Shown piece by piece: positions 45,122 to 48,097 of a DNA stretch of 64,000 nt; position 1 is the first letter of the stretch; every line of letters begins with the position of its first letter. Made by a program: the position numbers and the translations under genes. This DNA is from a virus (Duplodnaviria; Heunggongvirae; Uroviricota; Caudoviricetes), in IMG/VR virus record IMGVR_UViG_3300042922_001472, one strand, 5' to 3'. Below the pieces are notes generated by a model. It did not search any database. It saw only the letters and a list, made by a program, of their open reading frames with translations, and was not told the DNA's origin.

Positions 45122-48097
45122 ATGAAAAATATAGAAAAAGCAACAATGTTATTAAAATGCAAAACACTAAATGAAGGTAGTCTTATATATAAAGCTCCAT
45201 TGAAAGAAACCATAAAAACACCAGCAACTGAATTAGAAAATGGAGATATTCAGTTATGTATCAATAAATATACAACTAATCCTGTTATAATTCCTCATAA
45301 AGATAGATATTTAAATACGCTGATATTAGGTTCTACAGGTGCTGATAAAACCTCACAAATATTACTTCCAATGATTAATCAGGATATGCAAAATCATGAA
45401 TGTGGAATTACAGTAATAGAATCAAAAGCTGACCTTGCAGAAAAGGTATATGCAATGGCAAAGCACTATGGAAGAAAAGTTGTATATTTCAATCCATTAT
45501 TACCTGATTGTCCATCATTTAATCCGTTTTTTGGTGATGAAAATGACGTGATTGAGAATATATCTATGACATTCAGAATGCTAAATTCCGATTATTCACA
45601 ATTCTTCCAAGATATGAATGAACAATTAATTAGATATTCAGTAATAGTTTTAAAAAGATTAATGGGGAATAAAGCTACTTTTGCTGAATTATCAATGCTT
45701 ATACGAAACTCTGATGGAATAGGAAGAAGAATGGTAATTAATTTTTCAAGATTAAGTGCAGAAACAGAAGCCATAGCAAAAGAAAATAGAGATATAGCTT
45801 TATGGTTTTTAACTCAATATTTTGATGAAAAATCAAAAACATATGAGTACTGTGATGGGCTTCGTTCAAAAATTGCAAAAATTATGTCTAATACCCATTT
45901 AAGACAAATATTAAATCCTGATAATGAAGAAAGTGATATAGATTTTAATAAACATCTTACAGAAGGTGGAGTTGTTGTTATTACAACTGCACAAGGAGTT
46001 TTGGGGAATTTAGGCGAATTTCTTGGTTATTCATTAATCCTTAACTTCCAATCAGCAGTATTAAAGAGACCTGGCAATAAAGATTCAAGAATACCTCAGT
46101 TCTTGTATGTAGATGAATTTCAAACATATTCTAACCCAGGATTTAAATATATGCTCTCACAAGGTTATTCATGTCGTGTTGGTTGTCATCTTGCTACGCA
46201 AAATAGAACACTTATGGCAATGGGTGGGGGACAAAACAATAAAAACTTTATTGAATCGATATCTGAAAATGCAAGAAATATAATAATATTCCCAGGTATA
46301 AATACTGTTGATACTAAATATTATTCTGACCAGTTTAGTGAATTACTCAAATATGTTATTCAAAGAGGTATTCCAGTTGAATGCTGTTTTTCTCCACTGG
46401 ATTTAATTTATAGGGAACTTGGAGAAATAACATACTGTGTAATTCAAAATAATACAATACAGCCTCCAGGAGTTGGGATAATTGAATATATTCCAACAGA
46501 ATTAAATGAAAAACTTGATGCAATAATAGAAGAATATAATACTACTATAAAAACCAATAAAGTCATTAAAAAAAGGAATCTTCAAACACTGGATTTTAAA
46601 GAAACTCTTGCAGAATTCTTCAGTCTTGGTCTTTTAAATGGCAACTTCTATCAGAATCAAGAGGAAGTGTTAAAAGATGCTAATGATATATTTCAAAGAG
46701 CACTTGCAGAATGTCCAGAATTTGCAACTAAGTGTGCTATATTTGGTCACAAACAAAATTCACTTAGACTTGTTCCTACAGTTTGGTTAGTTTATCTTTC
46801 TACTTTAGAGGATAAAACTCTATTTAAAAAAGCATTTTCACAAATAATCTCTACATTCGATATGTTGTATGATTTTATGGAAATTGCAAGAAAGGGTAAA
46901 GTAAGAGAAGGTCTTGGTAGAGGAGTTAAAAAAGTAATGAATGATAGATTTATTTCGTTACTTAATGAATATCAGGCATGTCGTTATAAAGGAACAATTT
47001 CAGAAATAGCTAAAGTTACAAGACCTATAAATAACGATGATAACTTCCAAAAGATTATGAAATATGTATCTAAGGATGAATTGACTTTTGAGCGTATTAT
47101 AGCATTAAAGGGAGTTATTGATAAAATGCTCAATGGAGAATCAAGTAATGAAATCCTTCAAACGATAAAAGAAAATAGGTTGCAATTAGAGGAACTTAAA
47201 CATTCTACTTTCAAATTAACACAAGAAGGTAAGCAAAAGATTTACAGTGCTCTTTATGAAGGAATTAATTATTCTGCACTTGTTCGTAATCTTGTTGCTT
47301 TGGAAAGAGTGTTTGCAACTAAAACAGAAAGTGTTGAAAAATATTCACAAGCAAGAGGTTTCTTTACTCAAACTATAGTGCTTGAAACAGATATTCCATC
47401 AGCAATTGTTGACATGGTTTCTAATAGATTAAATGATGTTAGTATGTATAGAAAATCTAACATGTTGCCATTTGGATTATTAACAGCAGAAAAAATGAGC
47501 ATTACTCCAGAGTTTCAACAAGCACTTGGGAAAATGCTAAGAAACACTGCAGAAGATTCCTTTAAAATTAATAAGGATATTTCAATTTTGCTTGGTGTAG
47601 ATACTTCTGGTTCTATGTCTGGAAATATGGTAAATGATTCATTAGATTGTGCAGAGGTTTCTTCTGTATTTGGTTCTTTAATTAAAAAAGCCCATGCAAA
47701 TACAGATGTCTATGCAGTTGCGTCTACCATGAAAAAGGTTAATTTAAACAAGCAAGACGATGTATTTGAAATGTCAAGGAAAATTCAGGCAACGAATGTT
47801 GGATGTGGAACTTTATTTAATCAAATAATGAAGCATTATAATGGACAAAAGTACATTATCTTAATTACTGATAATGAACCAGCCGATAACTTAGAAAAAG
47901 CATGGTTATCAGCTAAGAATAAACCAGAGGGTGCAAAGCTTATTATTTGGAAAATGGTAGCCAATAAAAACAAAACTTCAAATGATAAATCTGTTGCTCA
48001 TGTATTTGGATATTCAGACCGAGTATTAGGGTTAATTAAGAATATCATTGAAGACAAATGTGGACAAGTTGAGGAAATTGAGAAGATAATAATTTAA
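45122..48097 (+). CDS. fusion protein: soluble TraG/VirD4-like (T4CP-type) P-loop NTPase domain + Ro60/Rsr-like TROVE domain + C-terminal vWA domain
   Basis: N-terminal half has an atypical Walker A LILGSTGADKTS, the T4CP-like block KVVYFNP...SFNPF, Walker B LYVDEF and HLATQN. C-terminal half carries Ro60-like blocks FQRALAECPEFATKCAIF, LRLVPTVWLVYL, GRGVKKVMNDRF, YSALVRNLVAL, NMLPFGLL, MIDAS LGVDTSGSM, ILITDNEP and AKLIIW. RBS AAAGGAGAT. Confidence 0.75.
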   Translation: MKNIEKATMLLKCKTLNEGSLIYKAPLKETIKTPATELENGDIQLCINKYTTNPVIIPHKDRYLNTLILGSTGADKTSQILLPMINQDMQNHECGITVIESKADLAEKVYAMAKHYGRKVVYFNPLLPDCPSFNPFFGDENDVIENISMTFRMLNSDYSQFFQDMNEQLIRYSVIVLKRLMGNKATFAELSMLIRNSDGIGRRMVINFSRLSAETEAIAKENRDIALWFLTQYFDEKSKTYEYCDGLRSKIAKIMSNTHLRQILNPDNEESDIDFNKHLTEGGVVVITTAQGVLGNLGEFLGYSLILNFQSAVLKRPGNKDSRIPQFLYVDEFQTYSNPGFKYMLSQGYSCRVGCHLATQNRTLMAMGGGQNNKNFIESISENARNIIIFPGINTVDTKYYSDQFSELLKYVIQRGIPVECCFSPLDLIYRELGEITYCVIQNNTIQPPGVGIIEYIPTELNEKLDAIIEEYNTTIKTNKVIKKRNLQTLDFKETLAEFFSLGLLNGNFYQNQEEVLKDANDIFQRALAECPEFATKCAIFGHKQNSLRLVPTVWLVYLSTLEDKTLFKKAFSQIISTFDMLYDFMEIARKGKVREGLGRGVKKVMNDRFISLLNEYQACRYKGTISEIAKVTRPINNDDNFQKIMKYVSKDELTFERIIALKGVIDKMLNGESSNEILQTIKENRLQLEELKHSTFKLTQEGKQKIYSALYEGINYSALVRNLVALERVFATKTESVEKYSQARGFFTQTIVLETDIPSAIVDMVSNRLNDVSMYRKSNMLPFGLLTAEKMSITPEFQQALGKMLRNTAEDSFKINKDISILLGVDTSGSMSGNMVNDSLDCAEVSSVFGSLIKKAHANTDVYAVASTMKKVNLNKQDDVFEMSRKIQATNVGCGTLFNQIMKHYNGQKYIILITDNEPADNLEKAWLSAKNKPEGAKLIIWKMVANKNKTSNDKSVAHVFGYSDRVLGLIKNIIEDKCGQVEEIEKIII

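Follow-up and report, generated by a model that had tools for sequence, protein, structure and literature searches.

The closest described counterparts of the gene analyzed here are the bacterial Rsr proteins (D. radiodurans Rsr, 2NVO; Salmonella Rsr with YrlA/YrlB) together with the RYPER complex; the Ro60 of phage phiLo (9KOP/9L5Y, with Yrl1 and Yrl2); and the type IV coupling proteins (T4CPs), including TrwB, VirD4, Cagbeta, and DotL (PF02534, PF10412, and PF12696). We analyzed a stretch of 64,000 nucleotides (the window) of the IMG/VR virus record IMGVR_UViG_3300042922_001472, in which a single open reading frame (ORF) at positions 45122..48097 (+) encodes a protein of 991 amino acids (aa), a Ro60-like protein interrupted by a T4CP core. 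As in Rsr and RYPER, a HEAT-repeat ring and a vWA domain bearing a MIDAS motif (metal ion-dependent adhesion site) are predicted, candidate partner RNAs share the strand of the gene and lie immediately upstream of it, an arrangement described for Y RNAs (PMC4201824), and a 3'-5' exoribonuclease gene is near. The window gene differs from them in belonging to a very divergent family, in its location on a megaplasmid, and in having RNase R rather than PNPase as the neighboring exonuclease; moreover, the upstream RNAs form arrays of 5-9 units without the motif GNCGAAN0-1G, and the window protein is split by an insertion of 465 codons. The phiLo protein is likewise a mobile-element Ro60 homologue whose gene is preceded by Y-like RNAs (PMC12135203), but it has no inserted domain, has a disordered N-terminus, and is accompanied by 2 Yrl RNAs with a CGAA motif. 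The inserted core descends from the T4CP family and matches its fold, but it is without the transmembrane domain and the C-terminal tail, carries a degenerate Walker A, has lost a conserved arginine, scores below the family thresholds, and lies away from relaxase and type IV secretion system (T4SS) genes.

An earlier note on this ORF had read it as a T4CP-like P-loop NTPase joined to a Ro60-type TROVE and vWA module, had placed it on a mobile replicon, had taken the combination to be undescribed, and had proposed ATP-driven threading or remodelling of RNA. Both family assignments are right as regards descent, the replicon resembles a conjugative megaplasmid, and the combination is unique across every database that we searched, with no report of a TROVE/Ro60-T4CP combination found in the literature. 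The proposed motor activity did not hold up against the state of the inserted domain, which shows G75D, R349Y, a 25-residue deletion, a sub-threshold Pfam score, and loss of T4CP constraint. The reading that we favor, with a probability of roughly 0.55, is that the gene is a lineage-specific chimera, in which a functional Ro60-like protein carries a drifting, probably ATPase-dead T4CP passenger domain.

A coupling protein core inserted into a Ro60-like gene

All 991 codons of the ORF are open, with an AAGGAGA ribosome-binding site 7 nt 5' of the ATG, in a window of 25-31% G+C, and the homologies of both parts are far above chance. The motifs on which the earlier note had based its assignments are present in the order it gave. 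On the T4CP side, these are GSTGADKT (aa 70-77), KVVYFNP (aa 119-125), SFNPF (aa 132-136), (F)LYVDEF (aa 327-333), and HLATQN (aa 356-361), and on the Ro side FQRALAECPEFATKCAIF (aa 524-541), LRLVPTVWLVYL (aa 548-559), GRGVKKVMNDRF (aa 599-610), YSALVRNLVAL (aa 717-727), NMLPFGLL (aa 780-787), and LGVDTSGSM (aa 824-832), followed by the vWA strands ILITDNE (aa 913-919) and AKLIIW (aa 938-943).

The 2 parts are not arranged head to tail. Stand-alone Ro-like relatives start with MKN(V/I)EK...(E)GG.VYQ.SF.ETLAEFFSLG, whereas the window protein starts with MKNIEKATMLLKCKTLNEGSLIYKAPLKET, continues with the T4CP core, and only then resumes the Ro-like sequence with ...DFKET-LAEFFSLG. Residues 1-30 (MKN...EGSLIYKAPLKET; 45122..45211, +) align with the N-termini of the stand-alone Ro-like proteins P0121 and P0125. 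At the DNA level, the window is collinear with the closest relative locus (L003) from a hairpin 5' of the gene, across the ribosome-binding site and start codon, up to codon 30, diverges from it after that codon, and rejoins it 1395 nt later, so that an insertion of 465 codons parts residue 30 from LAEFFSLG at residue 496. The octamer AAAGAAAC is found at both junctions, with the left copy at 45203..45210 (+), identified by the L003 comparison, and the right copy at 46598..46605 (+), 1395 nt (465 codons) from the left one, and both junctions are in frame. A longer target duplication of ~40 nt at the junctions was not significant (P = 0.28-0.55), and only the 8-nt repeat stands. The T4CP-derived insert itself comprises codons 31-484 (45212..46573, +), supported as such by its 69% identity to another coupling protein of the same record, by Foldseek, and by synonymous distance (dS), and is followed by a linker, RNLQTLDF (46574-46597, +), just before the right repeat. 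The main body of the Ro60-like protein (46607..48097, +), recognized with a family profile and an AlphaFold2 (AF2) model, then consists of a predicted HEAT-repeat (TROVE-type) ring and a vWA domain.

With residues 1-30 belonging to the Ro60-like protein as its N-terminal segment, the T4CP core is an internal, in-frame domain insertion after codon 30 of a Ro60-like gene and not an N-terminal fusion partner. The earlier note was thus right that both domains occupy one ORF and that one of them is related to T4CPs, and the parts of it that have to be revised are the head-to-tail order and the assignment of residues 1-30, which belong to the Ro60-like protein. In Xenopus Ro60, the N-terminus forms 2 beta strands with the vWFA domain and helps to close the ring (PMC12135203). 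If that arrangement holds here, the insert would sit between the ring-closing N-terminal strand and the first HEAT helix.

Since T4CP and Ro-like homologues share large contigs, we had suspected a fusion of adjacent genes. This origin was rejected, as no T4CP is encoded within 10 kb of the Ro-like gene in the 3 relatives with readable 10-kb flanks (L001, L004, and L005; these and L003 are the 4 Ro-like relative loci that we inspected), and no T4CP remnant was detected by tblastn upstream of the Ro-like gene in L001, the only relative locus tested. Upstream of the ORF in the window itself, no remnant of a T4CP transmembrane region was found.

A protein identical to the chimera (P0001) was identified on 3 separately assembled contigs (JGI metagenome 37 kb, NCBI metagenome-assembled genome [MAG] 240 kb, and 534 kb), and the identical protein is public as that of a Clostridiaceae bacterium MAG, K0R54_154. 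Given these 3 contigs, and given that the insert is only 69% identical to the other T4CP copy of the genome, a repeat-collapse or frameshift artefact of assembly is very unlikely. The search for homologous fusions suggested in the earlier note returned none. We found no second T4CP-Ro chimera in a 5.8-billion-cluster search with either half, none among 1.84 billion representatives scanned exhaustively with HMMER, where all long hits were T4CPs, and none in 72,556 plasmid records, where 0 of the 401 records with a match reached 80% query coverage. As a singleton, the chimera offers no conservation that would argue for a function of the combination.

Origin and evolution of the T4CP-derived insert

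Residues 31-483 are 69% identical over 455 residues to P0002, a TraG/TraD-type coupling protein of 726 aa whose gene lies ~96 kb away in the same record and ~5 kb from a relaxase gene (Replic_Relax), and 55-60% identical to >100 T4CPs from plasmids of Bacillales and Clostridia. The insert matches aa 151-630 of P0002, that is, the nucleotide-binding and all-alpha cytoplasmic core, and is without the transmembrane region and the acidic C-terminal tail. In agreement with the earlier note, no N-terminal transmembrane helices are present: the top Kyte-Doolittle mean over 19 residues in the chimera is 1.25, with no hydrophobic segment, whereas P0002 has at least 3 segments >1.6 inside aa 18-97, and the homology begins at its residue 151, past these segments. 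A weak similarity to NCBIfam TraD around the P-loop scored 29 bits against a cutoff of 366. The insert is not encoded beside relaxase or T4SS genes; its neighbors are a helix-turn-helix (HTH) gene, the RNA array, and a DUF1173 gene.

The synonymous distance between the insert and P0002 (dS = 0.78) is smaller than that between P0002 and its orthologue P0003 (dS = 1.86), and P0003, which comes from the same sample as L003, is for this reason probably from a sister plasmid. These distances place the insert as sister to P0002 and indicate that it arose from the T4CP of this plasmid lineage itself, after the 2 plasmids split.

Foldseek searches with a full-length AF2 model (predicted local distance difference test [pLDDT] 76.8) matched Cagbeta, DotL, and TrwB at E 1e-8 to 1e-10 (8DOL, 6SZ9, and 1E9S), and the model matches Ro60 structures as well as T4CPs. 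As MAFFT alignments with more than ~6 Ro-like proteins set the T4CPs against the Ro part, the input for this model was restricted to 28 T4CPs and 6 Ro-like proteins. Its inter-domain geometry (predicted template modeling score [pTM] 0.53) and its N-terminal 34 residues (pLDDT ~30) are not interpretable.

Relative to the family Walker A sequence GPTGSGKT, the insert (GSTGADKT; 45329..45352, +) carries P71S, S74A, and G75D, the last being the unusual Asp-for-Gly already pointed out in the earlier note and a departure from the canonical GxxGxGK[ST]; Walker A keeps its lysine and threonine, and Walker B its Asp-Glu. In P-loop NTPases, the glycine before the Walker A lysine leaves no space for a side chain. 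Further along, in the stretch with Walker B FLYVDEF, SQGYSCRV, and HLATQN (46100..46204, +; alignment to the T4CP family), the insert reads SQGYSCRV where the family has TQGRSYRV, corresponding to R349Y and Y351C; this family motif aligns to AQARSLGF of DotL, and the arginine at position 349 is conserved from the T4CP family to DotL. By alignment with P0002 and the rest of the family, a conserved stretch of 25 residues is also deleted in frame (deletion site 46364..46396, +). Across the 144 columns that are at least 97% conserved, the insert keeps 119 (83%), compared with 99% for the family median and 92.5% for the family minimum. The 25 altered near-invariant columns include G75D, P71S, R349Y, Y351C, F304S, and L379S, and the losses include hydrophobic-to-serine changes in the core and glycine-to-acidic changes. 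Taken alone, the insert scores 17.4 bits with PF02534 (T4SS-DNA_transf), under the gathering score of 20.1, and is unmatched by PF10412 and PF12696, whereas P0002 scores 42.3 bits with PF02534 and passes all 3 T4CP families.

The rate of change is strongly asymmetric between the 2 copies. In Tajima relative-rate tests, 68-76 changes were unique to the insert vs 8-17 to P0002 (chi-square 32-53), so that amino acid change is ~5-fold higher in the insert, whereas third-position changes are symmetric (36 vs 43 and 34 vs 39). Branch dN was 0.115 for the insert and 0.030 for P0002, with omega of ~0.29 and 0.08, respectively. Insert-specific replacements affect 16%, 18%, 28%, and 21% of columns in the conservation classes at least 97%, 80-97%, 50-80%, and <50%, while P0002-specific replacements affect 1.7%, 1.2%, 12%, and 12% in the same 4 classes; the excess in the insert is roughly even over all of them, at ~9-17 percentage points. 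Such an even spread reads, at the level of substitutions, as the pattern of lost T4CP constraint, and together with the motif changes it suggests that the insert no longer works as a coupling ATPase and has probably lost its ATPase activity.

Other soluble derivatives of the same Firmicutes T4CP family were identified in other metagenomes. P0004 (903 aa) and P0232 (901 aa) each consist of 2 tandem T4CP cores without transmembrane segments and without a Ro60 part, with a canonical GPLGCGKT P-loop kept in the second core of P0004. These proteins show that soluble derivatives of this family arise repeatedly and can persist. The first core of P0004 and P0232 is without the Walker B Asp-Glu (LYIDDL).

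The Ro60-like part and competing explanations

Over 98% of their length, residues 481-991 share 60-73% identity with ~110 stand-alone Ro60-like proteins, all of 405-599 aa and most of 524-530 aa, which carry source names such as "RNA-binding protein," "TROVE domain-containing protein," and "60 kDa SS-A/Ro ribonucleoprotein." The separate hidden Markov model (HMM) searches suggested in the earlier note bore out its prediction in part. PF25045 (vWA_Ro60) was matched above threshold (36.5 bits vs a gathering score of 27.7; aa 822-975, 47585..48046, +) and is the sole Pfam match in the whole protein, whereas Pfam TROVE missed the query and matched only 7 of 35 members of the Ro-like family, and the insert stayed below the T4CP thresholds. 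With the NCBIfam Rsr equivalog, the Ro-like family scores 29 bits against a cutoff of 900. The MIDAS motif DTSGS (aa 827-831; 47600-47614, +) is intact, with D, S, and S invariant across the family.

A profile of the Ro-like family matched human Ro60 (9nen; 7.6e-27), Xenopus Ro60 (1yvp; 2.6e-26, over positions 2-262), phage phiLo Ro60 (6e-25), and D. radiodurans Rsr (2nvo; 2e-12), and the matches span the HEAT-repeat and vWA parts alike. An AF2 model of aa 496-991 reached pLDDT 91. Ro60 structures make up all 13 of its best PDB matches, with template modeling (TM) scores of 0.71 to Rsr 2nvo, 0.70 to human Ro60 9nen, and 0.63-0.70 to the phiLo protein. The structure prediction that had been suggested as a check thus supports the Ro60-type assignment, and we take a Ro60-like HEAT-repeat ring and vWA module to be present, as modeled.

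In the Ro part, the relative-rate test is balanced, with 43 changes vs 44 for P0121, and all 24 invariant columns are kept, as are 54 of the 56 that are at least 97% conserved; had this part drifted as the insert did, at 16% of invariant sites, losses at ~9 of the 56 would be expected. Substitution patterns of this kind indicate normal purifying selection on the Ro part. We infer that it still acts as a ring-shaped RNA-binding protein, and that it would bind the upstream RNAs and cooperate with RNase R.

The history that we propose for the chimera would begin when a duplicated cytoplasmic T4CP core, from the plasmid itself, inserted in frame after codon 30 of a conserved Ro60/Rsr-like gene. 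It would have landed ahead of the first HEAT helix and behind the short N-terminal segment, for which pairing with the vWA domain is possible by analogy. The Ro part would have stayed under normal selection as an RNA-binding ring, with the upstream structured small RNAs and a 3'-5' exoribonuclease, for which RNase R is the candidate, as partners. The T4CP part would be a tolerated passenger that drifts by missense changes, with nonsense and frameshift changes purged since the Ro part lies downstream. An open frame in the insert (455 codons, within DNA of 30% G+C) is not independent evidence of function, because a stop codon would truncate the downstream Ro part.

Several observations weigh against a mere passenger. 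The omega of the insert is ~0.3 and not 1, and if the insertion is as old as the duplication, this would mean moderate purifying selection and hence a retained non-T4CP role. The inserted fragment fits domain boundaries, Walker B and HLATQN survive, and the frame is open, all of which would also be expected of a selected module. In addition, the loss of ATPase activity is deduced from sequence, and the AF2 confidence for the insert derives from an alignment of true T4CPs and is silent on whether the insert folds. A 2-phase history, in which the sequence was constrained as a T4CP and then neutral for about a quarter of the time since the duplication, fits the omega value, which equally allows moderate selection for a new non-catalytic role. 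Such a role, with the insert repurposed as a folded module for oligomerisation, for nucleic acid binding (through the all-alpha part), or for docking on the true T4CP or relaxosome, is a tentative alternative that we hold to be possible but on the unlikely side. Besides an omega of ~0.29 on the insert branch, it would account for the exact boundaries (a start at P0002 residue 151, past the hydrophobic region, and an end before the acidic tail), for the retained Walker B and HLATQN, and for a frame that stayed open over dS of ~0.39 per lineage, and the tandem transmembrane-less cores P0004 and P0232 offer a precedent. The excess replacements in the insert are nevertheless about as frequent at columns at least 97% conserved as at variable ones, where a folded domain under selection should protect its core, the open frame is expected anyway with the Ro part downstream, and the chimera remains a singleton among billions of proteins. 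A special case of binding, in which the insert still joins the full-length T4CP (P0002, for example in mixed hexamers) or the relaxosome and so tethers a Ro60-like/small-RNA particle to the conjugation pore, appears to us far-fetched on present data; if true, it would couple RNA surveillance or the delivery of Y-like RNAs to plasmid transfer.

The model of the earlier note, an active hexameric T4CP-type motor on a Ro60 ring that threads or remodels RNA with ATP, draws on the presence of both modules in one polypeptide, on Lys and Thr in Walker A and Asp-Glu in Walker B, and on a predicted fold resembling TrwB, Cagbeta, and DotL. Set against an Asp at the glycine preceding the Walker A lysine, a Tyr at the arginine conserved to DotL, the 25-aa deletion, the sub-threshold Pfam score, the loss of site-specific constraint, and an architecture conserved nowhere else, we regard it as highly improbable. 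It is also improbable, if slightly less so, that the whole ORF is dead, either as a recent pseudogene in which the insertion inactivated the Ro60-like gene or as a chimeric MAG assembly. If Xenopus Ro60 is a guide, the insertion falls at the point of ring closure and could block it, the source is a MAG, and the N-terminal 34 residues are modeled at a pLDDT of only ~30. A dead gene is, though, difficult to reconcile with the intact invariant columns of the Ro part and its lack of rate acceleration, and a misjoin with the same gene on 3 assemblies, with an identity of 69% to the other copy, which excludes repeat-driven misassembly, and with 2 in-frame junctions flanked by a direct repeat. As a chimera, the gene is mainly a clean natural case of a domain insertion into a ring protein, with its 2 halves under different selective regimes, and it warns against inferring mechanism from the co-occurrence of domains in a single MAG.

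Upstream RNA array and locus context

The gap of 1.35 kb between the HTH gene and the ORF (43774-45121) is organised rather than featureless. Motifs, folds, and covariation delimit an array of 5 stem-closed small-RNA-like units (43890..45070, +), headed by a consensus promoter, TTGACA-16-TATAAT (43890-43917, +), and followed, after the last unit, by a hairpin with a T-run (45038-45070, +). Each unit starts with motif A, (G)GGTGC-N4-AAGAYTACAT (N4-5 across loci), at 44088, 44313, 44446, 44723, and 44835 (+), and ends with motif B, RTCTT-N4...TTTTCC, at ~44183, 44411, 44614, 44796, and 44993 (+). In the corresponding gaps of the relatives, the start motif occurs 9 times in L001, 6 times in L004, 8 times in L005, and 3 times in the B. 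thuringiensis Bt407 plasmid BTB_502p, whose TROVE gene is BTB_RS30805, with none expected by chance; the arrays lie at L001 7185-9760, L004 8490-9670, L005 7523-9760, and L128 4996-5659. A contig scan with motif A (15 bases) was uninformative, as single matches arising by chance dominated it.

Pairing between the N4 of the start motif and the 4 bases that follow RTCTT in the next end motif reaches 3.19 of 4 positions, compared with only 1.71 of 4 for the preceding end motif, and 0 of 20,000 permutations reached the observed value. The Y of AAGAY covaries with the R of RTCTT (20 C-G, 5 T-A, and 2 mismatched), and T-G pairs are frequent in the unit stems, which agrees with RNA read from the + strand. 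In minimum-free-energy folds, most units are closed by the covarying stem. A Y RNA has a stem in which its 5' and 3' ends pair, and YrlA carries a tRNA-like module besides its sequence motif. The units thus look like stem-closed RNAs of ~50-270 nt beside a Ro60-like gene, with the position and general shape of Y RNAs, and may be Y-like RNAs. No Y RNA, YrlA, or tRNA was identified in the window with Rfam (gathering and E-value modes) and ARAGORN, none of the array units of the window or its relatives matched an Rfam family, and the motif GNCGAAN0-1G, with which YrlA was described (PMC4201824), is absent from the array units. In 3 relatives, a tRNA-like element (Rfam tRNA, 48-52 bits) lies 55-125 nt 5' of the Ro-like start, after the array terminator (L001 9877-9947, L004 9876-9944, and L005 9872-9939; ARAGORN calls one with an odd anticodon), and none precedes the Ro-like gene in the window or in L003.

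The window gene order is RecG, RNase R, HTH gene, gene-free gap, and Ro-like gene. In L001, L004, and L005, RNase R is likewise followed by a divergent HTH_26 gene, then by 1.8-3.1 kb free of genes, and then by the Ro-like gene, and L004 and L005 also show RecG upstream of RNase R. L003, the closest relative (73% identity), is a short contig beginning 220 nt ahead of the Ro-like gene, and of the surrounding genes it shares only the downstream DUF1173 gene with the window. The RNase R gene (39920..42067, +; TIGR02063, 777 bits vs a cutoff of 598) lies 3 kb upstream of the Ro-like gene in the window and is the obvious candidate for an exoribonuclease partner. The HTH_26 (Cro/C1-type) gene (43516..43773, -) is divergent at the array head, in the same position as in L001, L004, and L005, and may regulate the RNA array.

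The wider locus may matter more than the chimera. This divergent Ro60-like family is carried on megaplasmids of 360-720 kb in Bacillales and Clostridia, including the genetically manipulable B. thuringiensis Bt407, and sits beside RNase R, preceded by arrays of 3-9 covarying stem-closed RNA units without an Rfam match. If these units are Y RNAs, they would extend the diversity of bacterial Y RNAs and offer a tractable system for Ro60 function in Firmicutes.

PADLOC returned no defence-system match for the ORF or its neighbors. Elsewhere in the window, a DnaE-type Pol III alpha, an HD-domain enzyme of the CCA-adding/poly(A)-polymerase type, a 5'-3' exonuclease, RecG, and RNase R are encoded at 4082-7927, 13648-15156, 16769-17962, 36808-38853, and 39920-42067, the last interval being RNase R. 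This nucleic acid maintenance set, which the replicon carries itself, is unusual, and RecG and RNase R are also present at Ro-like loci of Bacillales contigs and plasmids of 400-740 kb. A 752-aa ORF at 714-2972 (+) had no Pfam match at E<=0.001. Just 3' of the Ro-like gene, a 377-aa protein with a weak DUF1173 match is encoded in the window (49084-50217, +) and in L003 (4241-5374). A few kilobases downstream of the Ro-like gene, vWA/TerF-like/Copine-type gene pairs and a DUF6075 gene were identified in L004 (14749-16360) and L005 (19342-21078), and DUF6075 is also found in Bt407 (L128 10022-10399).

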